A DNA stretch of 64,000 nucleotides from Candidatus Woesearchaeota archaeon (GCA_049700835.1 JBNAUL010000001.1:308043-372042), one strand, 5' to 3'; shown: positions 1,165 through 63,080, counted from the first letter of the stretch. Notes: generated by a model from the letters alone, not told the origin. Program-made: numbers and translations.

Positions 1165-1297
1165 GGAACTGCTGGACTGGATAGATAACAAAATTAAGAA
1201 GAGAATTTTTGCCAATAGGAGTCATGCTTTTGAATTTTTAATAGCAAGATTGATGGAAAACAACAAGCTTCAGAGCGAAGATGAAAACAAGAGATAA
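1133..1297 (+). CDS. Second RHH protein, 54 aa (not in ORF track)
   Basis: Manual translation MKERITITLNEELLDWIDNKIKKRIFANRSHAFEFLIARLMENNKLQSEDENKR. It overlaps both neighbours and shares 45 identical nt with the first RHH (1066-1110 = 1199-1243). Confidence 0.8.
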   Translation: MKERITITLNEELLDWIDNKIKKRIFANRSHAFEFLIARLMENNKLQSEDENKR

Positions 1298-4200
1298 AAC
1301 CAAAGATTTAGGAAAAGGGAAAAACTTGAAAAATCTTAAAAAGCATTTTGACGAAGGCGGATTTAGGGCAACATTTTATGCCTTGCTGGCAGCAATACTT
1401 GCAATCCTTGCAATAATTGTTCTCATACATATTAAGAATTACATTGGATATATGGCACTTCAAACAAGAGCAGGTTCAATCTCTGAATTGAAGATTGACC
1501 TACGATTGCCAGCATCGATATGGAGCGGATTTTACGGTTTAGGGCTAATGGTTCCTGGATATACAGAACAACAACTTGATGTTGCAATTGGCAATACAAT
1601 TAAGAACAAGCACTTGGTTTTTGACTGCTTGAAATACGATGAAGAAAATCCTCCTGAAATTTATGCTTCAACCTCTCCTGTCATTCTCTGGGAAACACTA
1701 AGCCCAGCAACAACAGACATGGTTGACAATTACTTGGAAGTAAGCCCTGATTACATAATGTCAGGCACAAATACCTTCACAACGACTATGACAATAAGAT
1801 TAGGAGATAGAAACATAACAAACATTCCAGCAACACATACTAAAAAATTTGGAGCTCCTGACAGCATGCTCTTTGACATTGGAGTTTTGAGAGACGCAAA
1901 CAACAACTTAGTTTTTGTAACTCATGTTACAGACTATGTCAGGGGCTTTAACAACGAACTTGTAAACTATCAAATGCTACTTCCTGTAAAATCAGATACG
2001 ACACCTGTTTATTATTTCTTTAGAGACCCTTATGAGGAGTGTCCTGCAGGCCCAGCACCAGCAGTAAATACTACTTTGTATGGTTATGTTTTTGACAACG
2101 AAACATTGGAGGCATTAGCGAATGTTACAATAAGGATACAAGGAATAGAAGCCCTGACAGACGAGAATGGATTTTACAACATAACAGCATTGGACGGAAC
2201 TTATAACTTGTTTGGTTCAAAAGAAGGTTATCATAACTATATAACAACAATAAATTTGACACCTGACAACTCAAGCACTCCTGAGAGAGAAGACATAAAA
2301 GAATTCAACTTTACAATGCGAAAAATACATGGTCTTGAGTTTGGTAACGGGACGCTTAAAGGTATGGTAACAGATTCAGGTTCTAAACAGCCGTTAATCA
2401 ATGTTTCAATAATCATAGCAGGAATTTTAGTCTATACTAATACTTCAGGAGAATACGAAATAAACCTTACAGAAGGCAACCACACATTAATCGCTTTAAA
2501 ACAAGGATACAAAGATTTTTACAATTTTAGCGTTCCTGTAATAAGAAACAATGTTACAAATTACAATTTCTCAATGACCCTGTTGCCGCCACCGCAAGAA
2601 GCGCAAATCCAAAAGACAGGAACAACAGAATTCACTTCCAATGCCCCTCAAGTCCCTCCGCAGATACAGGAACCTATTGAGATAATAGACCACATAGTTT
2701 CAATGAGAATGATAGATGAGCAACTTAGAAAGGACTCTTTCATTGACAGATTGATGACTATAAAAAGTTACAAGAGAACAACAGCGCAAATAACATTGTC
2801 TGTTTTAGGAGATGTCGCTGATATGGTTCTGCTTGATAAATCAAAATTGATAATAGAACCACAAGGAAGCGAGAACTTAAGCATAAGATTGTTGGCAAAC
2901 AAAGAGCCAGGAATCTATGAAGGGGTTTTGGTCATGCAAGGTGATTTTGAGGATAGAATACCTATAAGAATTATTGTCTATGAAAAAGAGAGGTTGCCAA
3001 TTGAATCAATGCTTATAAAAGTAACTCCACTCAAAGATGTCATAAGCCCTGGAACTGATTTAAAGTTCAGGGTTTCATTAACTAATTTGTTGAAAGAACA
3101 GTACTACAATGTGACTTTGAAATACTATTTGATAAATGAAAAGACAAACGAATCAATATTCTTAGGAGATGATTATGAGATACTGCAGACCTCCTTATCA
3201 TTAATAAAGTCCTATAAAACAAATAGTACAATAGAAGAAGGTTTTTACAGAATTGAAGTTAAGACAGAATACTTAAACTTTGAATCCTATGCAAGTACAA
3301 TCATAAGAATAGCAAAACCATTCTACATGTATGCCCTGTTCGGCATTCTCCCTCTATGGCAATTGTTCCTGATAATTTTGGTGGGTTCTATATTGAGTTT
3401 TGCTTATGTTCGTTATCGTGTTTTTAGGAGGTCTAGGCTTAGGTATGGTGTTTCTGTTGATGTTAGGAGTTTGCGTCGTGTTTCTGATAAGTTGGGTTTT
3501 GTTGGTAAGGTTGCTGAGGTTGGTGTTCCTTTTTATTTTGATTTGAATTTGTTGTCTACTCATTGTATTGTTGCTGGTGCTACTGGTGGTGGTAAGAGTG
3601 TTGCTGCTCAGGTTTTTGTTGAGGAGTGTTTGAAGCGTGGTGTTGGTGTTTTGGTTTTTGATCCTACGGCTCAGTGGTCTGGTTTTTTGAGGGCTTGTTC
3701 TGATGTTAGGATGTTGGGTTTGTATTCTGGTTTTGGTTTGCGTAGGGGTGATGCTCGTGGTTTTCCTGGTAATGTTCGTTTGGTTAGGGATGCTAGGGAG
3801 GTTGTTGATGTTAGGCGTTTTTTGAAGGCTGGTGAGATTAATGTTTTTGTTTTGAGTAGGTTGGAGCCTGAGGATATTGATTTTTTTGTTGCTAATACTG
3901 TTCGTGAGGTTTTTAGGGCTGGTTTTGATGAGTTTGGTGGTTTGCGTTTTTTGTTGGTTTATGATGAGGTTCATCGTTTGTTGCCTAGGTTTGGTGGTTC
4001 TGGTGAGGGTTTTGTTCAGATTGAGCGTGCTTGTCGTGAGTTTCGTAAGTGGGGTGTTGGTGTTGTTTTGATTAGTCAGGTTTTGTCTGATTTTGTTGGT
4101 GAGATTAAGGCTAATATTAATACTGAGGTTCAGGTTAGGACTCGTGATGAGGGTGATTTGCAGCGTGTTCGTGAGAAGTATGGTGAGGAGTTTTTGAGGG

Positions 4201-5081
4201 GTTTGGTTAGGGCTAGTGTTGGTACTGGTTTGTTTGAGAATCCTGTTTATAATGGTGGTAGGCCTTTTTTTGTTAGTTTTAGGCCTTTGTTGCATAGTGT
4301 TTCTAGGTTGTCTGATGGGGAGTTGGATGCTTATGATCGTTTTAATGGTTTGGTTGATCAGTTGGGTTTTGAGTTGGATTCTTTGGAGGGTTTGGGTGTT
4401 GATGTTTTTGATTTGCGTTTGGAGTTGAGGTTGGCTTTGGATAAGTTGAAGGTTGGTAATTTTGGTATGGTTGAGGTTTATTTGGATGGTTTGAGGTCTA
4501 GGGTTGATAGTGTTTGGAGGGGTTTGGGTAGGGTTGCTCCTGTTTTTGAGCGTCGTTTGGTTTCTCGTGATGAAGTTTTGCGTAGTGTTGAGGAGGCTAG
4601 GAGGGAGAGGCAGAAAGCCATAAAAGAAGAAAAGAAGGCAAAGGGAGAAGAGGAAGCATCAGAAGAAGAATTTAAAGAAGAAACAACCGAAGAAACAGAA
4701 GAAAATAACAACAAAAAGGAAAATAAAGAAGAACAGAAAAATCAAGATGTCAATAAAGAAAATAAAAACCTTGAAAACCAGAATGAAAAAAATGAAATTA
4801 AACCTGATAAAATTGAACTTTTGAAAAAGGAAACAGAGCCGCAATTCTATTTTGTTTTGGAAAATGGAAAACAACTCAAGAGCATTTACGATTTAATTGA
4901 GGAATTAGAAATTATGAGTGATGATGTTTTTTATCATCATGTTAATGATTTTAAGAATGATTTTGAGAATTGGGTTAGGTTTGTTTTTTTGAACAATGAA
5001 TTGGCTGATAAGATTTCAAAAACCAAAACAAAAAGAGACATGTTAAAAGCGATGGGTGAGTATATTGGAAGAAGCAGTTGA
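1281..5081 (+). CDS. Membrane-anchored HerA/FtsK/VirB4-like (DUF87-type) ATPase with extracellular subunit-like and Ig/carboxypeptidase-regulatory-like domains and a C-terminal DUF5752-like domain
   Basis: N-terminal hydrophobic segment, two GxVxD..T..xxNVxI repeats, a TM near 3330-3410, Walker A GATGGGKS, VFDP, Walker B LLVYDEVH, REFRKWG, ISQ and HHVNDFKNDFENW. Confidence 0.85.
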   Translation: MKTRDKTKDLGKGKNLKNLKKHFDEGGFRATFYALLAAILAILAIIVLIHIKNYIGYMALQTRAGSISELKIDLRLPASIWSGFYGLGLMVPGYTEQQLDVAIGNTIKNKHLVFDCLKYDEENPPEIYASTSPVILWETLSPATTDMVDNYLEVSPDYIMSGTNTFTTTMTIRLGDRNITNIPATHTKKFGAPDSMLFDIGVLRDANNNLVFVTHVTDYVRGFNNELVNYQMLLPVKSDTTPVYYFFRDPYEECPAGPAPAVNTTLYGYVFDNETLEALANVTIRIQGIEALTDENGFYNITALDGTYNLFGSKEGYHNYITTINLTPDNSSTPEREDIKEFNFTMRKIHGLEFGNGTLKGMVTDSGSKQPLINVSIIIAGILVYTNTSGEYEINLTEGNHTLIALKQGYKDFYNFSVPVIRNNVTNYNFSMTLLPPPQEAQIQKTGTTEFTSNAPQVPPQIQEPIEIIDHIVSMRMIDEQLRKDSFIDRLMTIKSYKRTTAQITLSVLGDVADMVLLDKSKLIIEPQGSENLSIRLLANKEPGIYEGVLVMQGDFEDRIPIRIIVYEKERLPIESMLIKVTPLKDVISPGTDLKFRVSLTNLLKEQYYNVTLKYYLINEKTNESIFLGDDYEILQTSLSLIKSYKTNSTIEEGFYRIEVKTEYLNFESYASTIIRIAKPFYMYALFGILPLWQLFLIILVGSILSFAYVRYRVFRRSRLRYGVSVDVRSLRRVSDKLGFVGKVAEVGVPFYFDLNLLSTHCIVAGATGGGKSVAAQVFVEECLKRGVGVLVFDPTAQWSGFLRACSDVRMLGLYSGFGLRRGDARGFPGNVRLVRDAREVVDVRRFLKAGEINVFVLSRLEPEDIDFFVANTVREVFRAGFDEFGGLRFLLVYDEVHRLLPRFGGSGEGFVQIERACREFRKWGVGVVLISQVLSDFVGEIKANINTEVQVRTRDEGDLQRVREKYGEEFLRGLVRASVGTGLFENPVYNGGRPFFVSFRPLLHSVSRLSDGELDAYDRFNGLVDQLGFELDSLEGLGVDVFDLRLELRLALDKLKVGNFGMVEVYLDGLRSRVDSVWRGLGRVAPVFERRLVSRDEVLRSVEEARRERQKAIKEEKKAKGEEEASEEEFKEETTEETEENNNKKENKEEQKNQDVNKENKNLENQNEKNEIKPDKIELLKKETEPQFYFVLENGKQLKSIYDLIEELEIMSDDVFYHHVNDFKNDFENWVRFVFLNNELADKISKTKTKRDMLKAMGEYIGRSS
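3393..4633 (+). repeat. T/G-wobble block covering the whole ATPase domain; shared with upstream paralogue
   Basis: By manual reading all codons in 3393-4571 end in T or G. The last 178 nt are duplicated at 1-178. Confidence 0.85.
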
Positions 5082-5265
5082 TATTCCGGAATCAAAGTAT
5101 TTTGTTTTAAAAGACGGAAAAAGATTAGCTTCAATTCAAGAGTTAGTTGAAGCTTTAAGGGTTATAAGTGATGATGTTTTTTATCATCATGTTAATGATT
5201 TTAAGAATGATTTTGAGAATTGGGTTAGGTTTGTTTTTTTGAACAATGAATTGGCTGATAAGATT
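4917..5265 (+). repeat. 99-bp exact direct repeat (4917-5015 = 5167-5265) encoding the DUF5752-like core
   Basis: Direct comparison, offset 250; the first 25 codons all end in T/G. Confidence 0.95.
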
Positions 5266-5619
5266 GGCAAGTTTAAAACAAGAAATGATATCCTGCTGGA
5301 ACTGCAGAATTATGTTTTAAAAAATAAACAGAACAAGCAAGAAATAAATCAGATTAAAAAGAGCGATTTGCCAAAAGAAGATAAAAATCCAAAAATCCTA
5401 GAGTTGGAAACAAGATTAGAAAGCATTAGAAAGAGAATATCAGAACTTAGAAAGCAGGGTTTTGATACAAAAAATGCAGAACTTATGATTTTGATGGTTC
5501 CCCCAAGGATAAGGTTTGCAGAGATAACATGTAATGAAATTGATTTTTTCAAGGCAGAGCAGAGCATAAAGAATATTGAACTAGAACTGAAAGAAATTGA
5601 GAGTTCAAAACCAAACTAG
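5056..5619 (+). CDS. DUF5752-like domain protein with C-terminal helical region
   Basis: YFVLKDGKRLASIQELVEAL...FYHHVNDFKNDFENWVRFVF..ELADKI. Confidence 0.75.
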   Translation: MSILEEAVDIPESKYFVLKDGKRLASIQELVEALRVISDDVFYHHVNDFKNDFENWVRFVFLNNELADKIGKFKTRNDILLELQNYVLKNKQNKQEINQIKKSDLPKEDKNPKILELETRLESIRKRISELRKQGFDTKNAELMILMVPPRIRFAEITCNEIDFFKAEQSIKNIELELKEIESSKPN

Positions 5620-5681: not shown

Positions 5682-6617
5682 GTGAAAATGTTTAAGTTTT
5701 TTAAGAAAAAGAGTAAAGAAGAAGAAAATATCTCCGAACAAGAAAAACTTGATCAAGCAGAAGAACAGCAGATTAATGTTGAAACTCAAAAACAGGCATC
5801 ACTCAACATTGAAGCAGAAGTTTTAAGGCTTAAATCAACAGTAGAAGCTCTTGGAGAAGTTAGAAAAGCAACAGAAGAAAGATTGGGAAATCTAAGCCAG
5901 CAAGTTGGAGAATTGAGAGGAATGATTGTAGACAGGGACAAGCAGATATCGCAGATAGAAGTAAAAGCAACAAAAGCAGCTGATTTAGTCCAAGCAGTTC
6001 ATCCTGAAGAATTGATGTCAGAGGTTAAGCGCGAGGATGCAAAGATAGAAGCAGTAAAAGCGATGGTTGAGAGCAAAGAACTGGTTTTAAAGCAGGTCTT
6101 GGACGAAATGAAGCAGTTGAGAACAGAAGTGAACAAATTCAAGGGAATTGAAGAAATAATAAAGATGAGCAAGGAAGTTAGCCAGGAATTAATAAACATA
6201 AAGAAAGAAAGGGCAATCATTGAAAGGCACTCCAACAAGGTTGAAACTCTTTTCGTGGAAATGCAAAAGGAATTCAATGAATTTAAACAATTGCAAGACA
6301 AAATCACTGACCTTACAAAAACCACGTCGGACATGAACACTCTTGTGGACAAACTAAAAATCAGCGTTGAAGAAGCAGCAAAGCAGAAAGAACTGAGTAA
6401 GTTGAGCACGAATTTTGAAGAATTCAAGAAGCAAGTCACAAATATCGTTGATTTGTTCAACAAGAAATTTGTAGAACTGCAAAAGAACACAAGATTGGAA
6501 TTGCAACTGTTCCAAGAAGCATTTAACAAAAAAGCAGAAGAAAAACTTAAGGAAATAGAAGAAAAGATCGATGAGATAAAGAAAAAGGAAGCGGAAATAA
6601 AGGCAACCGTAAGGTGA
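5682..6617 (+). CDS. Cytoplasmic coiled-coil protein
   Basis: E/K/Q-rich heptad pattern throughout; GAGGTG RBS upstream. Confidence 0.75.
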   Translation: MKMFKFFKKKSKEEENISEQEKLDQAEEQQINVETQKQASLNIEAEVLRLKSTVEALGEVRKATEERLGNLSQQVGELRGMIVDRDKQISQIEVKATKAADLVQAVHPEELMSEVKREDAKIEAVKAMVESKELVLKQVLDEMKQLRTEVNKFKGIEEIIKMSKEVSQELINIKKERAIIERHSNKVETLFVEMQKEFNEFKQLQDKITDLTKTTSDMNTLVDKLKISVEEAAKQKELSKLSTNFEEFKKQVTNIVDLFNKKFVELQKNTRLELQLFQEAFNKKAEEKLKEIEEKIDEIKKKEAEIKATVR

Positions 6618-6671: not shown

Positions 6672-9600
6672 ATGAAGTTTTTAAGAGAAAAAGACAAACG
6701 GATAGAGAAAAACAAGCAAGTTTTTTGGTTAAATCTGCTTTTAAAAGCACTCTTAGATACTAATTTAGATAAAAAAATAAATAAAAAACCAGAAATAAAA
6801 AAATTGATGTTGCTTTTTATTTTGATATTTTTATTAATAGCAACATTAAATTTGAGTTCAAGCTTTGCACTTAAAAACTTGAATTCAAAAATAAGAATTG
6901 ATAAAAAAGAGGTTTTTGCAGGAGAAAAGATTAACATAAATCTTAACAGATTTTTTGAGAACTCTAAAATATTAATAAACTGTACTATTGAAAACAAAAC
7001 TGAAACATATAAACTATTCAACATTAAGAACAGTTTAACATTCACTCCTAAAAAACAAGGAAATTGCACGATTTATTTAATGTACGGAGAGGAAGTATTA
7101 GATTTTGATTCTTTTGTTGTTAAAAATCATGAAGAGAGCATTAAAGACACTGCTGTTTTATCTCAAAACAATTCTTATGAATTGAATATTTTAGAAAATC
7201 AAGAAAACGGCAAAGCAGGCATAGTAGAAAATGCAGAAGAATTTGCAAAAGAATTGCTGAAGAATGAAACAAAACAGATTGAGATTAAAAAGAGGAACAT
7301 TATTGAAAATGAAACAAAAAACAGAATACTCCATATTAAAGACAGCAGAAACAGAGAGATAAAAAAAGTAGAGACAAAGATAGAAATTTCAGAGAACAAC
7401 GATAAAGTTAATTCTAAAAAATTAATAGCAGAATTTAAAAATGCGAATGTTAATAAAATAGAATTTGAGAACATTGAACTCAGTCAGGAATCAGAATTGA
7501 GAATTGAAGATATTCCTTTGGAAAGAGTTAAGTCAAAAATTAAATTTAACAATCCAATAAAAGCATACGCAATAGATCCAACGAGATTAAACTTTACAAG
7601 AGCAAAACTAACATCAACAGCAATTGGAAATCAACTTTTAAAGTGCAAGGAATGGGATTTTGAAAAAAAAGAATGCAACGGCACTTGGATTAAAATAATG
7701 GATTTAATGCCAAATGAGGAATACACAATAGAAATAACCAAAGAAGACCCTGCATTCGTTGAAACAGGAATATCTGCAATAAACACAAAAAAACCAATAT
7801 ACAAACCAGGAGAAAATGCAGAAATCTTCATAACCGTATTAGATATTGAAGGATATTTAGTTTCAAATGCCGAGGTCAATCTTACAATAAGAACCCCAAA
7901 CAATCAAAGCTTTTACTTCTCAACATTAAACAACACAATAGCAGAAGTGCAAAAAGGGATTTACAAAGCAGAATATAACAGTACATTAGAAGAAGGAAAA
8001 TACTTGCTTGAAACAAGAGCAGCAAATTCTTATTTAGAACTTAACTTTAATTCAAGCTTTTCAGTATTAAGTTATTATCCTTATGATATAGTAAGGGAAA
8101 CTCCTTTTAGCATAGACCCGATAAGGCAAAGCTTAACAACAAAAATAAGAGTTGTTTCTTTTAGAGATAATAAATTCAATCTTACAGAATTCATTCCAGC
8201 AGAGTTTATAATAATAAACACAACAGCAGATTATCAAACAACGAATGAAGAAATCAAAACTAAAGAACTAAAATGGGTTGATTTAGAAAATAATTCTATC
8301 ATAGAATACACAGCAGTGCTTCCACCAAAATATCCAGAACTTTACACAATAAAATCATTCGTGGAAGATTCTTATGGTTATTTTGAAGAAGCAAGACCAT
8401 GGTTTTTAGCAGCTGATCCTGCTACTGGAAGAGCGCTCATTGTTTATAAAGTAAACTCTAACAATCCTTACTATAATATTTGGAACGGAACAAGTTTGTC
8501 ATCAGCATCAACAGCAACTAGTGTTGGAGCTAGACCTGATTGGATAGAATTAGCTTCTAATCCTAATTCTGAAGAGATAATAATGGCAACGCTTGACAAT
8601 GCAAATGATATTAATGTTCAAGTATGGAATGGAACAGCGTGGATTTCTCAATTGGAACTCGAAACAAATTCTAATGTTAATTATAAAAGTTTTGATGTTG
8701 CTTATGAAAGTTTTAGTGGAAGAGCATTGGTTGTTTATACTGATGGAACAGCAATTCCTAAATACTATATTTGGAATGGAAGTTCTTGGCTTGGAGAGTA
8801 TAGCGCAAGCAACACCGGTTCAACAGTGAGATGGGTTGAATTAGCATCAGACCCAAATTCAAATTATATAATGTTAGTAACTGAAGATGGAGATGCAGCA
8901 GCTGACATCAACGTTCAAATTTGGAATGGGAGTTCTTGGGGAGCTACTGTTGAACTAACAACAAATGCTTTTCCAAACTATAAAAACTTTGGTGTCAGGT
9001 GGAGCACTAATGATTATGCAATAGTAGTTTATGGAACAGCAAGTTATGAACAAGTTAGATACGCTATTTATAACAAAACAACAAGTTCTTGGCCAATAAC
9101 AAACGGTTTAGCTCTATCGGTAGAAACAGGAGGAGGCACAGATTATCCTTATTGGATTCAACTAGAGGCAAGCAGAACAAATGATTACATGATTTTATTA
9201 GCATCTGACAATGAAGATGATATTCATGCAAGTTATTGGAATGGAACTTCACAAAGTTGGGTTGATTTAGGACAGATAACAGGGGCTCTTTCATATGCTG
9301 CTTACAGGCCATTTGACTCTGCATTTGAGACATCATCTGGAGAAGCAATTATTGTTTATTCTGACAATAATCAAGGAAACATAAGATATAGAACATGGAT
9401 TAATGGTATTTTAAGCGGAGCATCAAATGTTTACAATGTTGGTGAAGAACAATACTGGTTAAAATTAACCTCTAATCCTGAAACAGATGAAATTTTGCTT
9501 GCATCAATAGATTCTGGAAGCGATTTAACACTTCATGTTTGGAATGGAAATTCCTGGAGTTATTTAGGAGAGTTGTCAAACGGAGAAGTTACTTCAACAA

Positions 9601-10671
9601 GAGATGGGGTTGATGTTGCTTATGAGTTAAAAGCAACAATACCTCCAAGTTTTACAATTTGGAACATAAGCAATTCTACAGGAGTTATTCCTGACTACAG
9701 CAATCAAACAAGAGGGCAAATAATAAGAGCTTATGCTTTGTGGAACCAAGTTATAAATCAATCGTACGCAGAACACAATGGTTTAGGAACACTATTGAAT
9801 TTTACAATAGACCCTCCTTATACCAATTCTTGGACAAACTACACCTTAAACACTACTGATACAACAATAATAAACACTTTAGGATTGATAAACATCTCAA
9901 TATGGGCTAAGAACAGGTACGGAATTTGGGCAAGAACAACCCCAACACTGCACTTTTATCTTTGGGCTTTGTTAAATATAACAAACATAAGCATAACAGA
10001 CGATTACATCAGCATTGGAGAAACAACAACAATCACTTGCGAAGTAAAAGATGCATATTTAAATATTCCAATAGGCAATTATAATGTTTCTTTTTATCTG
10101 AACAATTCTTTAATAGGTAGTTCTATTACAAATACTCTTGGCTTAGCAAGCATAAACTATACAGGAACAGTTGATGGGGTTTATAATGTAACCTGCAACA
10201 TAAGCAATGATTTTTCAAGATGGTATAAAGTTTCGTCAAGAAATTGGGCTAATGTTACATTAATAGTAACCTCTCAAGATGCAACTCCTCCAGTAATAAA
10301 TTATGTTTATGATTATCCAGATCCTGTTGCATATGATGGTATTGTAACAATAGGAGCAAATGTTACTGACAATGTAAATATTAGTACTGTTGTTGTTGAA
10401 ATAAATAATGTTAATTATACAATGAACTATGTTGAAGGAGATATTTGGAGTTATTTTTATAATGTTAGTAGTCTAAGCATCGGAACTTACAATTACACTG
10501 TTTATGCAAATGACAGTGCTGGTTTAAAAGCAGATCCAGTTAAGGGAAACTTCACAATAACAAACCAATTGTTTGTTAAAGTTGATACTGATAAACAATC
10601 GTACGAGTTAGGGGAAAATGTTAGTGTTTTTGTTAATGTTTCTGTTTCTGGTGTTGGTCAGGATGTTGGTG
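6672..10671 (+). CDS. Giant secreted surface protein 1, N-terminal part (signal/TM, MG2-like, WNGxxW beta-propeller repeats, Ig-like); start probably later than 6672
   Basis: Hydrophobic LMLLFILIFLLIATL segment, TKKPIYKPGE motif, repeated (I/V)WNG(T/S)xW blades; the frame is open into the N gap. Confidence 0.8.
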
Positions 10672-10771
10672 NNNNNNNNNNNNNNNNNNNNNNNNNNNNN
10701 NNNNNNNNNNNNNNNNNNNNNNNNNNNNNNNNNNNNNNNNNNNNNNNNNNNNNNNNNNNNNNNNNNNNNNN
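10672..10771. other. Scaffold gap (100 N) inside giant gene 1, probably a collapsed repeat
   Basis: Open frames on both sides; the flanks carry the T/G-wobble signature. Confidence 0.9.
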
Positions 10772-13700
10772 CTGTTGATGAGAATTTTTATGCTGTTTAT
10801 TACGGCAATCCAAATGCGACAAACGCAACTTATCCAATATTTTACAGGGGAACGATTTTTTATGATGCTTACACAACAAATCTTAACAACTATTCAAATC
10901 CAACAGGAGATTGGAGCATTTACTTGCAGCAGGCAAGAGCTTATGCATGCGATCCGTCAGATTTAACAACACTTACAGACCTTATAGATTTAAGCAGTTG
11001 GTATTCTGCAACAATAACCTTCCAATACAGAGAAGAAGGGACTTTAGAAGCAGACGATTGCTTGTATTATGGAATTTATTCCAATGGAAGTTGGATTGTT
11101 GATGAGCAGAATGTTTTCTGCGATGATGTTGGAGCAACATTCTTAACATACAATATTAATTTAAATTATTCTGAGATGAGTCCTGATTTTAGATTAAGGT
11201 ATAGGTGCAGGAGTTTTAGCGGAGCAGGAGAATATCTCTACATTGACAATTTGAATATAACAGGTTATAGATTGCAACATCCTCTTGTTAGTTCAAGAGT
11301 TGGTAATGTTGAAAAGTTTGTTTATAGCATAAGCAACGATTCTATTGGCAGTAATGGACTTTGGAATTGGTTATTTAATACTATAAACCAAAGTTATGGA
11401 TTATACTCAGTTATAGCATTTTCTAATGAAACAGGCTATCTTCCTGCATACAATTTTACTCACTTCAATATTTATCAAATAGTTCCGCCAACAGTTTATC
11501 TTATAACTCCAGAAAATAATTCTTATTATAAAACTACAAACATAACATTTAATTGTTCTGCATCCGACAACACAAGATTAGTAAATGCAACTCTGTATGG
11601 AAATTGGGGTGGTTGGCATGCAAACGAAACAGCAAGTTTAGGAGGAACTTCAAATTATACAATATTCACAAAAACATTGCAGGAAGGAACTTATGTTTGG
11701 AATTGTCTTGTTTACAATGTTAATAATTACAGCAGTTTTGCATTTCAAAACAACACATTCACAATAGATTTGCAAGAACCAATTGTTAATTTAATAAGCC
11801 CTGAAGATAATTATTCCACAAACAATTCTGTTGTTGAATTTACTTACAATGTTACTGACAACGCTTTAATCAAAGAGTGTTATTTAATCATTGACGATGA
11901 TATTATTCAAACAGACACAACAATTACAACCAATGCTAACCAAACATTTATAGAATCTTTAACTAATGGATTGCACAATTGGACTGTAAATTGCAGCGAC
12001 ATGGCAGGAAACACTTACAAAGCGCTTCCAAGAAAAATAAATGTTTCAGCAACTCCAATACTTTGGGATAGGAGATGGTATGAAACCTCAACCTTTAACT
12101 GCAATAACGAAACTTGCTATATAAGTTTAGCAAATTCAAGAGATCCAACTGAAAACCAAGTATACTATTCAAGCGTAAATTCAAATCAGTTGGTAACAGC
12201 ACTAAGTGCAGTATCGCCTTATTTTGGAAGCAATGGATTATTAATAACTCAAAACACTCAAGTTTCGTTCAGCGGGGAATTCTTAACAAACCCCGCTAAC
12301 AAGGGATTAGTTTCATGGTATTTGTATTATACTACAAAAGATAGCGATTATTTAATATGCAATGCTACAAACATTGCTCTATCTCCAACAACAGTTGCTT
12401 CATGCAATTGGACAGGTAGCGATTTAAAGTTGAACAGCACCAACAGATTTAAACTCGTAATAACTTACAACAATACATTTTCATCAGCAGTTTCATTTAC
12501 TCATACATGGGATTATTTAGAACTCTCTTATTTTGAACTTTCAAACATGATAGTGCTTGGATTTTTAAAAGCAAACCTATTGTTGCCAGAAAACAATTTA
12601 ACAATAAACCAAAACCAAGTTTTTAACTTAACATGCAATGTAAGTTGCGATTTTGGAACTTGCAGGAATGTAAGGGTTTATGCTCAGTACAATGATTCAG
12701 AAACAAATTGGACTAATATTGGAAGCTCTGGAAATTTGGTATTAAATTCTGGAGAAACAAATCCACATACAATTGGAGATGTAAATCAAACAAGCATAAA
12801 CACAACATTTGCCATAAAAGGAAATCTTGTTTCAACCAATAATGTAAGATGCTTTGCAGTTTCCGATTACTCAAACACAACAACAGAGAAAAGAACAATT
12901 TATGTTGGAGATTCTACTCCTCCACAAATAACTATTTCAAACCCTGAAAACAATTCTTGGCATAATCAAGCGATACTTGAAATCAAGTATGTGCCTTTTG
13001 ATAACAACGGAATAGTTAATTGTTCTTTGATAGTTGATGGAAATCTAAATCAAACTAATAGCACAATTGCTAATAACGAACAAAATAATTTTACAATATC
13101 CTTATATGCTGAAGGAATGCACAATTTAAGCATAACATGCTTTGATGTCTCTAACAATCAAGGAAACTCAACAACAATATACTTTTATTATGATAAAACA
13201 AGCCCTACGGTTAATATTTTAAGCCCTGAAAACGAAGTGGAAATTAATAAAAACTTGATTACTTTTAATTTTACAGCAGTTGATACTTTAGCTTATAATC
13301 TAAGCTGTAATTTAACAATAGACAATGAAGTAAAGCAATACAACATAACTGCTCAAAACAATACTCTAACAAGCATTACAGAAATAATTTCTTTAGGAAA
13401 TCATTATTGGAATGTCACTTGTTATGATTTAGCAGGAAACTATAATACAAGCCAAACATGGATGTTCACTATTTTAGATACAGCACCTTATGTTGTTCTT
13501 ATAACTCCGGAAAATAACTCTTGGGATAATACAGGAAACATAACCTTTTACTTCAATGTTTCAGAAAACAATGCTTTAGAGAATTGCTCGCTAATACTAA
13601 ACAATGTAATAAACCAAACAAAGAATTCTACAGAATTAATAAATGGGGGACAGAATAATTTTACAATCACTAATCTTCAAAATGGCGTCTATAATTGGAG

Positions 13701-16700: not shown

Positions 16701-17229
16701 TTCAGGGAGTTTGTTGTTAAGAAACCTTAACAACTCTTATGTTTATGTTTGGAATGTAAGCGAAGCTAATGATAGCAACATCTTTGCAGCAGATTATGAC
16801 AGCAACATAAATTGGAGCGCTTTGAAGGCAATAAGCAGGGATTTAAATGATAACTTTGTAAGCAACGATTTCTCAGAAATAGATCATGCTTTGGGAATGC
16901 AGAATTATACTGATTCTGTAAATAGAACTTACACAATAAACAATCTACCAAAAGCAACAAGTTCATTTGCAGTTTTTAACAAGTTGATTGAAAATGTTCC
17001 TGTTGTAGAATCATTCAACAACTCAAACTTTATGACAGGAATACTGTGGGATTACAGCGATGGTAGCAATGAGTACAATGGAACGCAAGATTTAGTTTTT
17101 ATAACAAGAACGAACATTGGAAAACAAGGAAGCTTTGATGTTTGCGATTATGAATTTAGGGTTCCTTCAAATCTCAAAAGTTATAAGGGAACAACAGATA
17201 GCGTAGTTTTTTACATCGAGATTAAGTAA
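10772..17229 (+). CDS. Giant secreted surface protein 1, C-terminal part: tandem Cys-pair Ig-like repeats, CARDB-like domain, terminal subunit-like domain
   Basis: Repeats PxVxLxxPxNN...F...D....C.L...GxxxWNVxCxD, PDLKI...ATIHNLG...IEEEDETNN, and the ending VVFYIEIK. Likely one gene with 6672-10671. Confidence 0.85.
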
Positions 17230-29293: not shown

Positions 29294-29388
29294 AAACCAT
29301 TTTTATTTTTTATTTTTTATAAATTCATACAATGCATACAATGCATGATAACATGCAAAAATTTTGCAAGCAAGTAAGGTGATAAAAA

Positions 29389-30301: not shown

Positions 30302-30311
30302 GGTGATTTTC

Positions 30312-44562: not shown

Positions 44563-44670
44563 AACAAAAACTAATAAACTTCCTTTATTTAAATCTTTTT
44601 TATGAACAATTTTAATATTGCAGAAGAAAAAATATTTAAACCTGAATGTATATAAAACAAATGTTGCAAA

Positions 44671-44916
44671 ATGAAAAGCAAAACGCAAGATAAAAGAAAA
44701 AAGGAGTGCTGTTTTAGGAGTTACATGAAATTCTATGATAACATGCTGAGAAAAGCAACGCCAACAGACATATTTTTTGTGAAAATATCCTCGCTATTTT
44801 TTGGGATTCTTTTGGTTTATTGGATTCCAAAACTATTAAATGTGAATGTTTGGATTTGGATAGGTTTGTTTATTCTAAGTACAGCAATGGCATTGAGACT
44901 TGTTTGGAAGAAATAA
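44671..44916 (+). CDS. Small two-TM membrane protein
   Basis: Two hydrophobic segments; TATA-like TTTAAA upstream. Confidence 0.55.
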   Translation: MKSKTQDKRKKECCFRSYMKFYDNMLRKATPTDIFFVKISSLFFGILLVYWIPKLLNVNVWIWIGLFILSTAMALRLVWKK

Positions 44917-56631: not shown

Positions 56632-57352
56632 ATTAAAATGTTTGGCTGTTTGGCAGTTCGTAAAATTTGTTTTTATATTAGATTTANNNNNNNNNNNNNN
56701 NNNNNNNNNNNNNNNNNNNNNNNNNNNNNNNNNNNNNNNNNNNNNNNNNNNNNNNNNNNNNNNNNNNNNNNNNNNNNNNNNNNNNNTAAACATTTATATT
56801 CTTAAGAATATATGTTTCTGCACTTTGAGCATTTTGCAAAAATTAAAATGTTTGGCTGTTTGGCAGTTCGTAAAATTTGTTTTTATATTAGATTTAAGAT
56901 GCAATGCACGTATAAGCTAAATAAAGTTACGCAATATAAAATTGCAAAAAATAAAAAAAGAAAAAAAATAAAAACTTATTTGTTTTATTTTTTGATGTCT
57001 TCAAGCGCTCTTTCTAAGAATTTCTTGTATTCGTCTATTCTTTTAATTTCTGCTTCTAAAAAACCCTTCTTTAAATCCTTATCTTGAACGAATTCATCGC
57101 TGAACATATATGCTCCTCTTCTAAATCCGTATCCAAATCCACAACCTCTTCCATAACGTCCGTATCCATACCCACATCCTAACCCCAAGGGGCCTGTTCC
57201 ATCTCCGAAAGGCATTTTTTTCACCTCCACAAGTTTTTTAAATTTTATTTTGAATTTATATTCATAATATTATAAATAAATATTCATAACTTATATTTAA
57301 ACATTTATATTCTTAAGAATATATGTTTCTGCACTTTGAGCATTTTGCAAAA
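56632..57352. repeat. Probable tandem duplication of a 511-bp unit (56842-57352) collapsed into gap 56687-56786
   Basis: 56632-56686 = 56842-56896 and 56787-56841 = 57298-57352, both exactly 55 bp. Confidence 0.6.
56985..57215 (-). CDS. DUF5320-family small Gly-rich protein
   Basis: GGAGGTGA RBS, MPFGDGTGPLG...GRGCGFGYGFRR, C-terminal coiled coil. Confidence 0.8.
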   Translation of the reverse strand: MPFGDGTGPLGLGCGYGYGRYGRGCGFGYGFRRGAYMFSDEFVQDKDLKKGFLEAEIKRIDEYKKFLERALEDIKK

Positions 57353-58709: not shown

Positions 58710-59261
58710 ATCAGAGAAAAAAGGAATTTTGAAGAGGAAAAAAGTAATTTCCTGCAGGTTTTAAAACTCACAGTTCAAATCCTGAAAAAGAATTACAATC
58801 TAACTGATTCTGAAATAATTGGATTGATAGAACAAAAACATGCTGATAGAGAAGATTTGCTGAATGAAAAAATTGAAATTCCCATAGAAGCATTTTCAAA
58901 GAAGTTAGGAATTTTGGAGAGCGTTGTAAAATACCTAAAAGAAAATGTAAACTTAAAAAACAAAGAGATTTCAAAACTAATTTCAAGGTCGCAAAAAACA
59001 ATTTGGAGTTCTTACAATTCTGCTTTGAAAAAACAGTCCTCAAAATTAATGGCTACCAAGGATTCAAAGATTAGAATTCCAATAATCGTTTTTTCTTCAA
59101 ATGAATTAGGAGCTTTGGAATCATTAGTTCTTTACTTAAATAAGAATGGATTCTCTGTAAATGAAATTTCCTCAATGCTTGAGCGCAATTACAAGACAAT
59201 ATACTCAACCCTAAACAATGCTATCAAAAAAACAGGAACAAAAGATGAGAATTCAAAATAA
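58710..59261 (+). CDS. Tandem HTH DNA-binding protein; possible ATC start
   Basis: Two IP..(A/V)FS..LG.LES.V.YL....EIS....R..KTI repeats; the frame is open from 58707 with AGGTGA RBS 6 nt before ATC 58710. Confidence 0.7.
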   Translation: MREKRNFEEEKSNFLQVLKLTVQILKKNYNLTDSEIIGLIEQKHADREDLLNEKIEIPIEAFSKKLGILESVVKYLKENVNLKNKEISKLISRSQKTIWSSYNSALKKQSSKLMATKDSKIRIPIIVFSSNELGALESLVLYLNKNGFSVNEISSMLERNYKTIYSTLNNAIKKTGTKDENSK

Positions 59262-60012
59262 AAATTCAATCAGGAACCTGAACAGAATACTTGAAATTGT
59301 GATATTCATTGCTATCTTATTATTCCTGCAACTGATTGCAATAGAGACAAGAGCAGCATACTCTGTTCCAGCAGGCCCAAATCTCCTTTACAATTACACA
59401 GAAATCCCAACTCCTCAATCAGCGTTGATTGTAAACACCTCTGGAGGAACAATAACAACAATGAATTTGTTTGGAATAACTCAAAATCCTCACTGGAAAG
59501 CATATGTCGGTAATGTCTCAGGAAAATTGGCTCTGCAGGACGCAAGCACTTACACAATATATGACTGGGCAATATCAAGAGTGAGCGGAGAGGTCTATGC
59601 AACAAGGAATTCGGTAACTCCTTCTTGGACAAACATAAGGTGCGCGAATTCCTCTGAACTGTCTTCAGAAGAGACATTCTTCAACATGAGTTCTGCGGAT
59701 GACGACAGCATATCAAAGACATTTAACTCAACAACGCACAAATCGTTCTTTGTAGGAACAAAACCAATATCAAGCAGCACATGCTTTGCAACATACACTT
59801 ACATACAGAACCAGTCCCAAAGTCCAAGCGAAGAGGCAAAATTCCAAGAAATAATACTTAGTGATGGAGCAAATTTAATCTTTGCAACCTTGCTTGAAAA
59901 CAAGAGTGTTGGTTTTAACAATCAAACATACGACTTTCAGATGCTCTTACCAGAATCAAAGCTACTATCAGCGCCAAACACAGCATACTACTTTTATTTA
60001 GAACTGACTTAA
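59245..60012 (+). CDS. Secreted subunit, family A
   Basis: Signal peptide; GGTITTMNL...WKAYVGNVSG...IYDW...GEVYATR...AYYFYLELT. Confidence 0.8.
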   Translation: MRIQNKNSIRNLNRILEIVIFIAILLFLQLIAIETRAAYSVPAGPNLLYNYTEIPTPQSALIVNTSGGTITTMNLFGITQNPHWKAYVGNVSGKLALQDASTYTIYDWAISRVSGEVYATRNSVTPSWTNIRCANSSELSSEETFFNMSSADDDSISKTFNSTTHKSFFVGTKPISSSTCFATYTYIQNQSQSPSEEAKFQEIILSDGANLIFATLLENKSVGFNNQTYDFQMLLPESKLLSAPNTAYYFYLELT

Positions 60013-60104
60013 GGAATTGGATTAAAAGGTTTTGAATAAAAAGATAATTCAAAAAATTTAATTCAAAAAATGAAAAATTGAAATTGAAAAAGGAGGTTGA
60101 GAAC

Positions 60105-61298
60105 ATGAAAATACTTGTTTTAAATGCAGGTAGCAGTTCTTTGAAGTATCAGTTGATTGACACATCCCAAAGGAAGGCGTTAATAAACGGCATAGTGGAT
60201 GCAATTTCTCTGAAAAATTCATACGTGACTGCAAATTTCAATGGAAGAGAAATAACAAAAAAGATAAGAGTGAAAAATCATGAGGAAGCAATAAAAATCT
60301 GCTTGAACACAATAATTGAAAGCAGGGTTGTAAAGGATATATCTGAGATAGAAGCAGTGGCGCATAGGGTAGTACATGGTGGTCTGAAATACAACAAACC
60401 AACATTGATAAACAACAAAGTAATAAGAACTCTTGAAATGGTTTCTGATTTGGCTCCTCTGCACAATCCTCCAAACATTTTATGCATAAAAATTTCAAAG
60501 AAAATTTTAAGAGTAAAACACATAGCAATCTTTGACACTGCATTTCATAGCACAATTCCAGAGAAGGCATTTTTTTACGCGCTTCCAATGGATTTCTACA
60601 AAAGATATGGAATACGAAGATTTGGTTTTCACGGAACAAGCCATTCTTATGTTAGCAAGGAAGCAATAAGAATTTTAAATGAGACGGGTTTGAAATCTGA
60701 AAAAATAATAACATGCCATGTTGGTAATGGAGTTTCAATAACAGCAGTGCTGAATGGAAAATCAGTGGACACTACAATGGGGTTCACGCCATTAGAAGGT
60801 GTTCCAATGGGAACAAGGAGTGGCTCAATAGACCCTGGAATAATCTTCTATCTCATGAAAAAGGGATATTCTTACAAGGAACTGGAGAGAATTTTAAACA
60901 AGGAATCAGGACTCTATGGAATTTCAGGAATAAGCTCTGACATGAGGGTTATCAGGGAAGCGATGTTAAAGAACAATAAAAAAGGAGAATTGGCTAAATT
61001 GGCATTTGAAATACAAGCATACAGTATCGGAAAGGCAATAGCTGGCTATGGTGCTGTTCTGAACGGCATTGATGCGATTGTTTTCACAGGAGGGATTGGA
61101 GAAAATGCTTATTATTTCAGAGAGAAGGTTTGCGGAATGCTAAATTTCATAGGAGTGGAGATTGACGATCAAAAAAACAAGAATAACGAATTGTTTGTTT
61201 CAAAAGATAATTCCTTGCCTGTGTTGGTTATAAAAACAAATGAGGAACTGGAAATGGCTTTGGAAGCAGAAGAAGTTCTTAGGAACATTGTTATTTAA
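60105..61298 (+). CDS. ackA: Acetate kinase
   Basis: LVLNAGSSSLK, HRVVHGG, APLHNP, FDTAFH, GFHGTSH, MGTRSG, FTGGIGEN, TNEE. Confidence 0.95.
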   Translation: MKILVLNAGSSSLKYQLIDTSQRKALINGIVDAISLKNSYVTANFNGREITKKIRVKNHEEAIKICLNTIIESRVVKDISEIEAVAHRVVHGGLKYNKPTLINNKVIRTLEMVSDLAPLHNPPNILCIKISKKILRVKHIAIFDTAFHSTIPEKAFFYALPMDFYKRYGIRRFGFHGTSHSYVSKEAIRILNETGLKSEKIITCHVGNGVSITAVLNGKSVDTTMGFTPLEGVPMGTRSGSIDPGIIFYLMKKGYSYKELERILNKESGLYGISGISSDMRVIREAMLKNNKKGELAKLAFEIQAYSIGKAIAGYGAVLNGIDAIVFTGGIGENAYYFREKVCGMLNFIGVEIDDQKNKNNELFVSKDNSLPVLVIKTNEELEMALEAEEVLRNIVI

Positions 61299-61894: not shown

Positions 61895-62242
61895 ATGAAT
61901 TTGGAAACCCTGTTCAGCGGTTCAAAGTGGGATATCATAAAAAAACTTTCAGAGAGGAGATATTCCCCTTTTGAACTTTCGAGAGAGCTTAACACAACGG
62001 TAGCAAACATTAGTCAACAGCTAAAAATCCTTGAGATGTTAGGAATAATAAAGAGGGAAAAGGCAGAAAATCACAACGAAAAGGGCAAACCAAAGACAAG
62101 ATTTGCTCTGGCAGACGATTTTGCATACATAATACTACTTTCAAGAGACGCTGCTGACAAGAAACTCTTGAAACTCAATCCAAAACAAGCAGATTACTTC
62201 AAAAATCTCATGCTCTTGGAAAAAAGCAACATTGAATCATGA
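61895..62242 (+). CDS. ArsR-like winged-helix regulator
   Basis: KWDIIKKLS..SPFELSRELNTTVANISQQLKILE..GII...KGKP. Confidence 0.8.
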   Translation: MNLETLFSGSKWDIIKKLSERRYSPFELSRELNTTVANISQQLKILEMLGIIKREKAENHNEKGKPKTRFALADDFAYIILLSRDAADKKLLKLNPKQADYFKNLMLLEKSNIES

Positions 62243-62363
62243 GAGATAGGTAATACAAAAACTTTTACCCATCATTATAATCATTATAAAATTCGCGCTC
62301 TTGCTTTTCAACAAGCAAAGCAAAACAAGCAAATAAAAAACAAGCAAGCGAGGTGAAAATAGA

Positions 62364-63080
62364 ATGAAAAAAAATTTAGTGCTTTTGTTTTTTTTGGCAC
62401 TTTTCTTGACTACAGCAACAGCACATGCAGAAGTTATAAATCCAGACAACATATCAGAAACAGCGCTTGGAAAGCACGGTACATCGCCTGCCAGGAGTTT
62501 GAATGCAGTAGCAGGAAATGTAACGCAGCTTACAATAACAACACAGACAGTCACGCAGTCATGGCAAGGTTATGTCGGAAACATTTCAGGAACAATAGTT
62601 TTGGACGACTCTAACAACAAAACGCTGTACGATTGGAGTTTGGCAGACCCACAGGGAGAAATCTATGCAGTTAGGACTTCAACAACGCCTGACTGGACAA
62701 GTGTTGTTTGTGCAAATTCAACGCATATAAACACAGAACAGATAGCATTGAACATGGGAGACGGAGCTGATAGGATAAACAACACTTTCACAGAAGATTT
62801 CAGCGGAAGCTTTTTGGTTGGAGGCGTTGTAATAAACTCAACTTCTGGCTGCAAACAAGTAGCAACTTATGTGAACGATGCAGCAGACCCTAGCAAAAAC
62901 TTCAAAGAGGTTTTATTGTACGATCCAACAAACGCATTGATAATATATACTGCACTGATAAAGAAGGGCTACTCTGTAGGTTACAATGGAAACACCTACA
63001 ACTTCCAAATGATAGTTGGAGAAGACGGGCATGGAAACACAGTAGCTTCAACATACTACTTTTATGTTGAAATAGAATAA
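62364..63080 (+). CDS. Secreted subunit, family A (closest to 28562-29293)
   Basis: GAGGTGA RBS, signal peptide, AGNVTQLTI...WQGYVGNISGTIVLDD...LYDW...GEIYA...STYYFYVEIE. Confidence 0.82.
   Translation: MKKNLVLLFFLALFLTTATAHAEVINPDNISETALGKHGTSPARSLNAVAGNVTQLTITTQTVTQSWQGYVGNISGTIVLDDSNNKTLYDWSLADPQGEIYAVRTSTTPDWTSVVCANSTHINTEQIALNMGDGADRINNTFTEDFSGSFLVGGVVINSTSGCKQVATYVNDAADPSKNFKEVLLYDPTNALIIYTALIKKGYSVGYNGNTYNFQMIVGEDGHGNTVASTYYFYVEIE

Follow-up and report, generated by a model that had tools for sequence, protein, structure and literature searches.

A beta-rich domain common to small secreted proteins, giant surface proteins and a SPEARE-type ATPase at a Woesearchaeota-type locus

What kind of structure, if any, is assembled at the cell surface when a single domain recurs in small secreted proteins, at the ends of giant surface proteins and in a membrane-anchored ATPase? 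The question is raised by a gene cluster in a 64,000-nucleotide stretch of an archaeal genome (G000:C1:308043-372042; 'the window' always means this whole stretch), which a preliminary description had put forward as a candidate undescribed filament or attachment system of a symbiotic DPANN cell. The genome comprises 1.07 Mb in four contigs and is 98.7% complete, and the window has a guanine-plus-cytosine (GC) content of about 0.31. The named relatives of the window proteins are metagenome-assembled genomes of Woesearchaeota, Pacearchaeota and Nanoarchaeota, and the organism is a DPANN archaeon of Woesearchaeota type. Almost all large genes from position 1 to ~42 kb lie on the plus strand and code for surface or membrane proteins; the stretch from 44 to 58 kb holds housekeeping genes (PGI-like, DNA ligase, pyruvate:ferredoxin oxidoreductase subunits, SET-domain and DHH-family).

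We find that the domain family and the gene cluster are real, conserved and undescribed. The reading that we favor, with moderate confidence, is a modular and non-covalent surface apparatus of the SPEARE type in Woesearchaeota-type DPANN archaea, built on this one undescribed beta-rich domain. The homology, domain architectures, synteny and phyletic patterns on which the reading builds are observations, and the contact between domain copies is a model prediction; we infer polymerization, the shape of the apparatus (probably a fiber with the giants distal and the motor at its base) and the task of the motor.

One domain in seven regions of the window

The proteins that carry the domain, and the domain copies within the three largest of them, are as follows (aa, amino acids; TM, transmembrane; Ig, immunoglobulin; A2, the domain profile described below; the 'arm' and 'hairpin' are segments of the domain discussed in the next section).

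1281-5081, plus strand: long SPEARE-type ATPase, 1266 aa (DUF87; CarbopepD_reg_2, E 3.7e-17; HerA 4d2i, E 1.2e-7)
1455-2021, plus strand: shared-domain copy of the ATPase, arm motif ~12 aa past the first TM helix, hairpin motif divergent (A2 E 7.5e-9)
3351-4460, plus strand: cytoplasmic ATPase domain, 54-60% identical to most orthologues listed across the order
6672-17229, plus strand: giant 1, Ig-repeat surface protein (Big_7, E 1.3e-29; Big_13; CARDB, E 1e-9, directly before the terminal domain)
16660-17223, plus strand: shared-domain copy of giant 1, arm-less, at the extreme C-terminus (A2 E 1.9e-11)
17388-26048, plus strand: giant 2, 2886 aa, with signal peptide, repeat region, Ig repeats, CARDB (E 3.6e-10) and terminal shared domain
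25476-26042, plus strand: shared-domain copy of giant 2, arm-less, at the extreme C-terminus (A2 E 8.9e-6)
28553-29293, plus strand: free subunit of the A-type clade, 246 aa (A2 E 1.1e-88)
29543-30301, plus strand: free subunit of the B-type clade, 252 aa (A2 E 6.6e-76)
59218-60012, plus strand: free subunit C, B-type clade, 264 aa (A2 E 1.8e-77)
62364-63080, plus strand: free subunit D, A-type clade, 238 aa (A2 E 2.9e-92), the protein used for the monomer and three-copy models

Seven regions of the window thus carry one domain of ~190 aa: the four small secreted proteins, the C-termini of both giants and the first ectodomain of the ATPase. Profile A2, an alignment of 50 family members, was searched against all 287 stop-to-stop open reading frames (ORFs) of the window. 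Beyond the four subunits it matched the three larger proteins at E 1.9e-11 to 8.9e-6, each match spanning nearly the whole domain core (profile positions 65-242 of 243 in giant 1, 49-239 in the ATPase and 70-242 in giant 2), and the next best score among the other ORFs was E 0.12. A profile made from the four window proteins alone found giant 1 (E 1.1e-6) and the ATPase (E 8.9e-5) and missed giant 2. The profile search therefore upheld the homology of all seven regions, on which the preliminary description had made its proposal depend, and every motif quoted there is visible in the alignment of the four stand-alone proteins, which align over their full length at 30-51% identity with 42 invariant columns. 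The regions exist where that description placed them, but three of the starts that it gave (28562, 29576 and 59245) are internal ATGs of the first three subunit ORFs. Within the 1.07-Mb genome, domain copies were found in the window only (six matches, the copy of giant 1 not being among those listed).

The N-termini of the four subunits run from a K/R-rich segment through a hydrophobic one to a small-x-small motif and, by eye, a polar mature N-terminus. Read in this way they appear to be Sec-type signal peptides, in agreement with the earlier view that the proteins are secreted and do not bear class III signals. Free subunits as a whole fall into two clades, 108 of A-type and 80 of B-type (support 0.998), and the window holds two of each.

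With subunit D as query, 276 proteins were returned at E <= 1e-3, all of them named 'hypothetical' and none with a Pfam domain. Among 1.84 billion representatives the domain family comprises 1,434 clusters at E <= 1e-3 and 1,036 at E <= 1e-10, and its named sources are without exception DPANN archaea of Woesearchaeota type. Of the 150 matches listed, the longer proteins have the domain at or near their extreme C-terminus. Pfam and NCBIfam searches with the four subunits gave a single NisI-like match (28553-29293, E 0.024), far below the cut-off, and the literature searched gives no description of the domain or the cluster, although homologues of the ATPase from Woesearchaeota may be listed in the supplements to the SPEARE papers.

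Giant 1 is read as two ORFs (6672-10778 and 10618-17229) split by an N run at 10672-10771, one of two in the window of exactly 100 each (the other is at 56687-56786). This run shifts the apparent frame; giant 1 is probably one gene of ~3,500 aa whose join is unreadable across it. Within giant 2, positions 19218-19964 are repeated exactly, over 747 bp with sharp borders, at 33114-33860 in the gene of p668, a neighboring protein described below. The repeat suggests recent gene conversion or cassette exchange between the repeat regions of surface proteins, and an assembly artefact is possible.

Predicted association and candidate end-pieces

An AlphaFold2 model of the subunit D monomer, made with alignment A2, has a confident beta-rich core (residues 66-238, block means 73-97) and leaves the N-terminal arm, residues 32-64, unplaced (predicted local distance difference test score, pLDDT, < 50). 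Foldseek gave no PDB match at E <= 0.001 (best E 0.068) and no match to the domain among the BFVD viral models, and a wide VIA-align search with the domain gave 0 of 48,161 chains at Z >= 5 (best Z 2.8). A sequence profile search of the PDB returned a single match, at E 1.2, and the ESM Atlas returned clusters of the domain's own family and then a fall to TM-score 0.28. The VIA-align blank is not a failure of the method, because a neighboring protein of the cluster, p307, returned 1,291 chains at Z >= 5 in the same search. Pilins, TasA, threads and cannulae are absent from the listed fold matches; comparison with pilins and TasA had been proposed in the preliminary description. No named fold can be assigned; the fold is apparently new, a missing match not being proof that it is.

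Three copies of mature D (residues 23-238), modeled with alignment A2, gave an interaction prediction score from aligned errors (ipSAE) of 0.62 (runs 0.62, 0.60 and 0.64) against 0.00 for the best of three controls, with contact agreement between runs of at least 98% and partner pLDDT of at least 82. Only one type of interface is predicted, and it is head-to-tail. Residues 63-94, which include the hairpin (77-92), and residues 218-237 of one copy touch the next, whose contact side consists of its arm (35-64) and a groove (67-71, 135-141, 166-173 and 207-217). The arm block at residues 48-64 (2.92 bits) and the hairpin (3.06 bits) are among the best-conserved blocks of the domain, and 26 of the 42 positions that are at least 90% identical fall within the 99 interface residues of 216 (hypergeometric p 0.016). 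The model thus predicts that domain copies bind head-to-tail, and so provides the homo-oligomer interface whose absence the preliminary description had named as fatal to its proposal. Its polymerizing subunits are supported as far as this predicted contact goes; the contact fits a sheet or a short adaptor equally well.

The larger proteins carry incomplete copies of the domain, and of two opposite kinds. A scan with one genome per species found 433 relatives, of which 71 loci were kept, and the window proteins were compared by phmmer with the 3,723 ORFs of these loci. The window and these 71 loci contain 23 ORFs of at least 450 aa with the domain. In all six ATPases among them the N-terminal copy begins at profile position 45-50, so that the arm is present; in 15 of the 23 the domain stands at or near the C-terminus and starts at position 61-70, so that the arm is absent; the two others start at positions 29 and 51. 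In the alignment, the ATPases (6/6) have kept the arm motif and lost the GN-x-S/T-G / YDW signature of the hairpin, and the giants (5/5) have kept the hairpin and lack the arm. By these motifs, giants and ATPases look like complementary end-pieces. When set against the predicted interface, these losses would leave a giant able only to begin a chain and an ATPase able only to end one.

On this basis we propose the following mechanism. Small subunits of the two conserved subtypes would be exported by Sec and would then join head-to-tail outside the cell, free of any chaperone. At each junction, the hairpin (GN-I/V-S/T-G ... YDW) of one subunit would sit in the groove of the next, and the N-terminal arm of that next subunit (AGN-V/I-T/S-x-L-x-I) would wrap back over the first. 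Giants, with a hairpin and no arm, could occupy one end only, the distal one; the long ATPase, with an arm and a degenerate hairpin directly after its first TM helix, could occupy only the other, at the membrane. The resulting order would be adhesin, spacer chain and membrane-anchored motor of the HerA/FtsK type.

Some long relatives outside this genome (P0134, P0142, P0153 and others) show a further arrangement. In 10 of 18 fusions that end in arm and domain there is a match to the Nup98-type S59 autopeptidase (E 3e-7 to 5e-4, above the cut-off in P0134 only), and an HFS motif lies ~100 aa before the arm in all three fusion proteins read. Their sequences suggest that the S59-bearing fusions are self-cleaving subunits with cargo. 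The idea that the autopeptidase frees the arm is unsupported, because the cut would fall ~100 aa ahead of it.

The ATPase, its relatives and alternative readings

The sequence of the long ATPase can be read as a K/R-rich N-terminus and a first TM helix, followed by the shared domain, two CarboxypepD_reg domains and further beta domains in a sequon-rich ectodomain region, and then by a second TM helix. The cytoplasmic part after it consists of a HerA/DUF87 ATPase with Walker A and B motifs, an acidic linker and a DUF5752-like tail. The protein belongs to DUF87 (PF01935; 46.2 bits against a cut-off of 23.2, E 7.6e-12), and Walker A (GGGKS) and Walker B (a hydrophobic run ending in DE) are intact in the translation. 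Its weak named relatives are HerA, CedD and TraB, HerA (4d2i) being the best solved one. The motor is better conserved than the ectodomain (54-60% against ~40% identity). A second ATPase gene enters the window from upstream.

1-500, plus strand: 3' end of the short SPEARE-type ATPase, 800 aa, which begins upstream of the window at L072 10141 (DUF87, E 4e-12)

This short ATPase has a DUF5752-like tail and no shared domain, and it is preceded by a 1035-aa paralogue of the neighboring protein p1097. Pairs of long and short ATPase genes recur, for example in G024, G273, G214, G116, G362, G400, G393 and G035.

The ATPase is not of a new type, contrary to the preliminary description, which had counted it as part of the undescribed system. 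Its cytoplasmic domain, used as query, matched 224 proteins of 2,217-5,000 aa (E <= 1e-3). Among the 120 of these that were listed, identity was 42-59%; they span several DPANN phyla, and some of their records are labeled Nanohaloarchaea or Nanosalina. Hamm et al. (2019; PMC6642349) described giants from Nanohaloarchaeota that combine a long extracytoplasmic region with a membrane anchor and a cytoplasmic portion that is conserved, and they report similar sequences in Woesearchaeota. Reva et al. (2023; PMC10266531) re-read the cytoplasmic part as a VirB4/TraG-like ATPase, report that a second ATPase gene adjoins the SPEARE genes and propose a secretion 'straw'. The likeness to the window extends to the large extracytoplasmic part, the anchor, the P-loop ATPase of HerA/VirB4/TraG type, the adjoining second ATPase and the spread across DPANN. 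Its layout of extracytoplasmic region, membrane anchor and cytoplasmic ATPase, together with the homology of its cytoplasmic part to the listed giants of other DPANN phyla, places our ATPase in the published SPEARE-type family of DPANN giant ATPases. That family is marked by giant size and by laminin-G and other adhesion domains within one chain; our ATPase differs in having only 1,266 aa and an ectodomain in which CarboxypepD_reg-like domains alone were recognized, the adhesion repeats and giant adhesin parts being encoded in separate proteins and not in the ATPase chain. The new domain, common to ATPase, giants and small proteins, appears to stand in place of a covalent link.

Two side observations concern the ATPase genes. 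The stretch 3301-4500, which covers the cytoplasmic domain (and its counterpart at L072 ~10990-12221), has a GC content of 0.41, a GC skew of +0.60 and an AT skew of -0.52, against skews of 0.01 and +0.16 in the ectodomain of the same gene; five orthologues are without the skew. Compared with orthologues, the skewed block has 2.7% K (against 8-10.5%) and 2.7% I (against 6-8%), with R, V and G raised, and it amounts to ~1.25 kb of 100% identity between the long and the short ATPase gene in each 100-nt window compared. The pattern resembles the effect of A-to-G and C-to-T pressure acting on the coding strand, and an antisense ORF at 3354-4295 is a by-product of the skewed composition. Separately, the same ATPase domain occurs in open frames of 8,055-12,056 aa in G310, G039, G356, G363 and G076, which would be among the largest archaeal proteins, if they are real genes.

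We compared the distribution of domain and ATPase in 401 genomes sampled from the phylum, with an ATPase query threshold of E <= 1e-40; related genomes are not independent, and the unpublished genome G242 is counted among those with the domain only. The domain is present in 109 of the 401 genomes (74 of 281 genera), which are of the window's own order, plus five from other orders of the same class. The ATPase is present in 75. Both occur in 56 genomes, the domain only in 53, the ATPase only in 19 and neither in 273, an odds ratio of 15 uncorrected for kinship. Co-occurrence with such TM-DUF87 ATPases had been suggested beforehand as a check, and it was found: domain and ATPase are linked, and neither requires the other.

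The size of the ATPase differs between these groups. Where the domain is present, the largest ATPase ORF has a median length of 1,296 aa, 40 of 56 genomes have one of 1,100-1,550 aa and only 6 of 56 reach 2,000 aa; where it is absent, the median rises to 2,756 aa, with 13 of 19 genomes at 2,000 aa or more and a maximum of 12,056 aa. Contig ends cut some of these ORFs short, and the genomes are not independent. We read the sizes as split and fused forms of one apparatus.

The modular apparatus that we favor would most likely attach the cell to a host cell or surface. By analogy with FtsK, HerA, VirB4 and VirD4, the motor here could move DNA or protein or remodel the assembly. The limits of the size comparison just given count against this apparatus, as do the following points. 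The ATPase was not found at E <= 1e-40 in 53 of the 109 domain genomes; because of this, the chain does not need an ATPase anchor, and the layout of tip adhesin, shaft and membrane base first proposed, which the complementary truncated copies fit, would have a base that is not obligatory. A hexameric ring of HerA type and a single-file chain share no obvious geometry. The head-to-tail contact accommodates a sheet or a short adaptor as readily as a fiber, and in the three-copy model the interface of copies 1 and 2 has few confident contacts. In the calibration set, the same mark was reached by 20 of the 30 true one-chain pairs and by one of the 23 single chains, counts that hold only roughly here because they were made with two copies and other alignments. 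The enrichment of conserved positions at the interface is modest (p 0.016) and supports binding without showing it. The polarity of the chain is inferred from the presence and absence of motifs alone, D being the only domain protein modeled, and some relatives place arm and domain after other domains (profile start 25-34), so that the arm need not be a free N-terminus. Finally, no RNA runs are listed with the locus; the runs that hold it are of DNA, from hot-spring metagenomes.

The most serious alternative, which we think unlikely, is a coat resembling a surface layer (S-layer), or a short pedestal, in which the domain docks the giants and the ATPase ectodomain and there is no fiber. The predicted contact is equally compatible with it. 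An abundant structural protein is suggested by up to 8 subunit genes within 20 kb (L010 and L026) and up to 20 first-look candidates per genome; the domain stands at or near the C-terminus of long proteins in all cases seen, as anchoring modules often do; a six-fold ATPase ring would suit a six-fold lattice; and a coat would agree with the domain genomes in which the ATPase was not detected. However, the arm-less and hairpin-less variants imply a polar, open-ended chain with two different ends, which a lattice would not need, and the interface predicted is of a single type. Presence in 109 of 401 genomes is moreover patchy for a basic layer of the envelope, although S-layer proteins diverge fast.

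We consider it improbable that the domain polymer is a conduit, that is, a tube or guide continuous with a HerA/VirB4-like ATPase channel through which the ATPase pumps protein or DNA between symbiont and host, as in the 'straw' that Reva et al. (2023) put forward for SPEARE proteins. Membership of the ATPase in the FtsK/HerA/VirB4 class of translocases, with both Walker motifs intact, would agree with such a role, as would the stronger conservation of the motor than of the ectodomain, the pairs of long and short ATPase genes (compare the second ATPase gene by the SPEARE genes reported in PMC10266531) and the cytoplasmic coiled-coil and DUF5752-like proteins that travel with the ATPase. Against it, Pfam scans of 36 window proteins found no channel component, relaxase, coupling substrate or VirB2-like pilin; as apparent Sec substrates, the subunits can do without a motor; each ATPase chain has two TM helices; no lumen is predicted; and about half of the domain genomes are without a detected ATPase. 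That the domain is merely a lectin-like module by which unrelated surface proteins bind the same host or environmental glycan, with no assembly, is very improbable: it is beta-rich, extracellular and found in adhesin-like proteins, and legume lectins occur among the weak top rows of Foldseek (E 0.1-0.5, TM-score ~0.1, not meaningful), but self-association is predicted by a model whose controls stay at 0.00, the interface predicted between the proteins contains the most conserved motifs, the ATPase copy ~12 aa from the membrane would be a poor site for a receptor-binding tip, and the stand-alone proteins, of 240 aa and in conserved A/B pairs, offer no further functional part.

Gene neighborhood and comparison with known filaments

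The further proteins of the cluster are as follows.

5056-5619, plus strand: DUF5752-like cytoplasmic protein, 187 aa (E 1.5e-4, below the cut-off; no signal peptide by eye)
5682-6617, plus strand: coiled-coil protein p311, 311 aa (no signal peptide; SMC-like coiled-coil matches only)
26434-27375, plus strand: cytoplasmic protein with DUF5752-like C-terminus, 313 aa (E 3.2e-4, below the cut-off)
30303-31226, plus strand: p307, 307 aa, an N-terminal hydrophobic helix and two Ig/FN3-like beta-sandwich domains (pLDDT 91.4)
32913-34919, plus strand: p668, repeat region and, after it, a C-terminal half with homology to p307 (36 of 71 loci)
35133-36341, plus strand: p402, secreted beta-domain protein with C-terminal TM anchor, weak Wzt_C and CARDB matches (12 of 71 loci)
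36452-38143, plus strand: p563, bitopic membrane protein with Ig-like ectodomain and Gly-rich linker (6 of 71 loci)
38673-41966, plus strand: p1097, Ig-like ectodomain (Big_13), TM helix and cytoplasmic coiled coil (10 of 71 loci)
58824-59261, plus strand: small helix-turn-helix (HTH) protein directly upstream of subunit C (weak HTH matches)
61895-62242, plus strand: ArsR-type winged-helix protein directly upstream of subunit D (HTH_5, E 1.2e-7)
63144-63998, plus strand: polytopic membrane protein with HExxH motif, cut by the window end (13 of 71 loci)

The most constant neighbor of the subunit genes is p307 (36 of 71 loci), which had been missed at first reading; in 28 of 39 cases a B-type subunit gene lies directly upstream of it. 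The fold searches with p307 return generic Ig-like matches, in the thousands. They allow no specific assignment as a PapD-like chaperone or an RbmA-like anchor, the matches to CfaE/CfaB, FimH and RbmA reaching TM-scores of 0.2-0.39 only; p307 could be an anchor, terminator or chaperone. DUF5752-like proteins, whose co-occurrence had likewise been proposed as a check, have homologues in 26 of the 71 loci, and the 313-aa one stands directly before the subunit genes in relatives. All DUF5752 matches in the window are below the Pfam cut-off, and the term was not found in the papers searched. The coiled-coil protein p311 occurs in 11 of 71 loci and directly follows the ATPase in L038, L048, L053 and L070; the ATPase cytoplasmic domain itself occurs in 5 of 71. 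In relatives the HExxH membrane protein, which has no Pfam or NCBIfam match, often follows a subunit gene. The acetate kinase gene (60078-61298) lies between subunits C and D, and from their positions the HTH and ArsR-type proteins are possible regulators.

Three gene orders recur: DUF5752, two or more subunits and p307; ATPase and coiled-coil protein followed by either a subunit or a protein of 700-900 aa with an arm-less domain at its end; and a p668-like protein, p402 and, further on, a subunit followed by p307. The order of ATPase, coiled-coil protein and domain protein is found in L038, L048 and L070, and in L053 with the domain gene ~2.4 kb further on; L002 reproduces most of the gene order of the window. 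Many public records with a Woesearchaeota-type cluster (L005, L007, L010, L013 and others) are titled 'uncultured Methanosarcinales archaeon', a label that seems at odds with the genes they contain. An 899-aa membrane-anchored protein on the minus strand (41989-44688), at the edge of the cluster, has a C-terminal alpha/beta-hydrolase of lipase/esterase-like type (DUF915, E 9.8e-12; PGAP1; LCAT) and a homologue in none of the 71 loci. The 171 nt from 29385 to 29555, which comprise the first codons of the B-type subunit gene at 29543-30301 and the region before them, recur with 89% identity at 31275-31445, just after p307; this repeat could be a promoter or leader that was duplicated, or what is left of another subunit gene.

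How does this set of parts compare with filaments already known? Usher, PapD and sortase families had no member in the Pfam scans of the 36 window proteins, which agrees with the earlier statement that usher and sortase are absent. The subunits end in the last strand of the domain (YYFYVE-I/L-x) with no hydrophobic tail, unlike sortase pilins. Type IV pili are set apart by the signal peptides, Sec-type by eye and not class III, and by the lack of a T2SSE-family ATPase and platform protein among the window proteins scanned. Three T2SSE-family ATPase genes above the cut-off lie outside the window, on contig 2. Just upstream of the window, a minus-strand stretch (L072 73-4232; G000:C1:296072-300231) codes for five small proteins of 139-309 aa, each with a short charged N-terminus followed by a long hydrophobic helix, which by eye look pilin-like with possible class III signals; two have Pfam matches at E ~0.007, far below the cut-offs.

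The closest logical parallel is with chaperone-usher pili (FimH/FimA, Pap), in which the terminal subunit-like domain of the tip adhesin is without an N-terminal extension, the extensions of the shaft subunits complete their neighbors, a special terminal subunit closes the other end, and subunits exported by Sec polymerize with no external energy. The fiber proposed here would share the logic of tip, shaft and terminator and the Sec-exported subunits, and the arm (residues 32-64), unplaced in the monomer and within the predicted interface, would correspond in the model to the extension. It differs in that the scanned proteins include no usher or PapD-like chaperone, the cell lacks an outer membrane, an ATPase would form the base and the fold is not recognizably Ig-like; no pilin is among the fold matches (best Z 2.8), an absence that does not exclude an incomplete Ig-like fold.

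Chaperone-free filaments with donated strands are established in archaea, namely threads (PMC9715654), the bundling pili of AbpA (PMC9245690) and cannulae (PMC12518558). They resemble the present case as archaeal surface filaments that are not of type IV, with Sec-type subunits and strand donation from a terminal segment. They differ in that no sequence or fold similarity was detected: TasA, bundling pilin, thread and cannula subunits gave no Pfam, PDB sequence or listed fold match. We know of no report of giant adhesins or of an ATPase with the subunit domain in these systems. The Pam pilus of bacteria of the Candidate Phyla Radiation (CPR), as given in a preprint (PMC13278184), has two major pilins, a dedicated tip subunit and a terminator or anchor; its pilins are Ig-like and use classical donor-strand exchange, and no ATPase is mentioned in that text. 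It too belongs to an ultra-small episymbiont, and its operon includes two-domain beta proteins with a membrane helix, to which p307 may be likened by description. In their fold and mode of exchange, the Pam pilins differ from the system described here.

A large part of archaeal diversity consists of DPANN archaea, which apparently live attached to other cells, and to our knowledge no attachment structure of Woesearchaeota is known at the molecular level. The cluster takes up ~45 kb of a 1.07-Mb genome and recurs across an order-level group; it supplies concrete parts and a testable polarity, and it adds a family of domains, with 1,434 clusters or more, whose fold appears to be new. The puzzling SPEARE giants gain a candidate function, as fused versions of an apparatus that other genomes encode in split form. 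The filament is a hypothesis, plausible and specific as to polarity. More tentatively, and as a possibility that we put well below the modular apparatus itself, the cluster may represent a new class of archaeal fiber, with an unmatched fold, hairpin-plus-arm exchange free of chaperone and energy, exchangeable giant caps and a base coupled to a HerA/FtsK-type motor, of which the SPEARE giants would be the fused form. If this is true, the cell could pull on the link to its host, remodel it or pass macromolecules along it.

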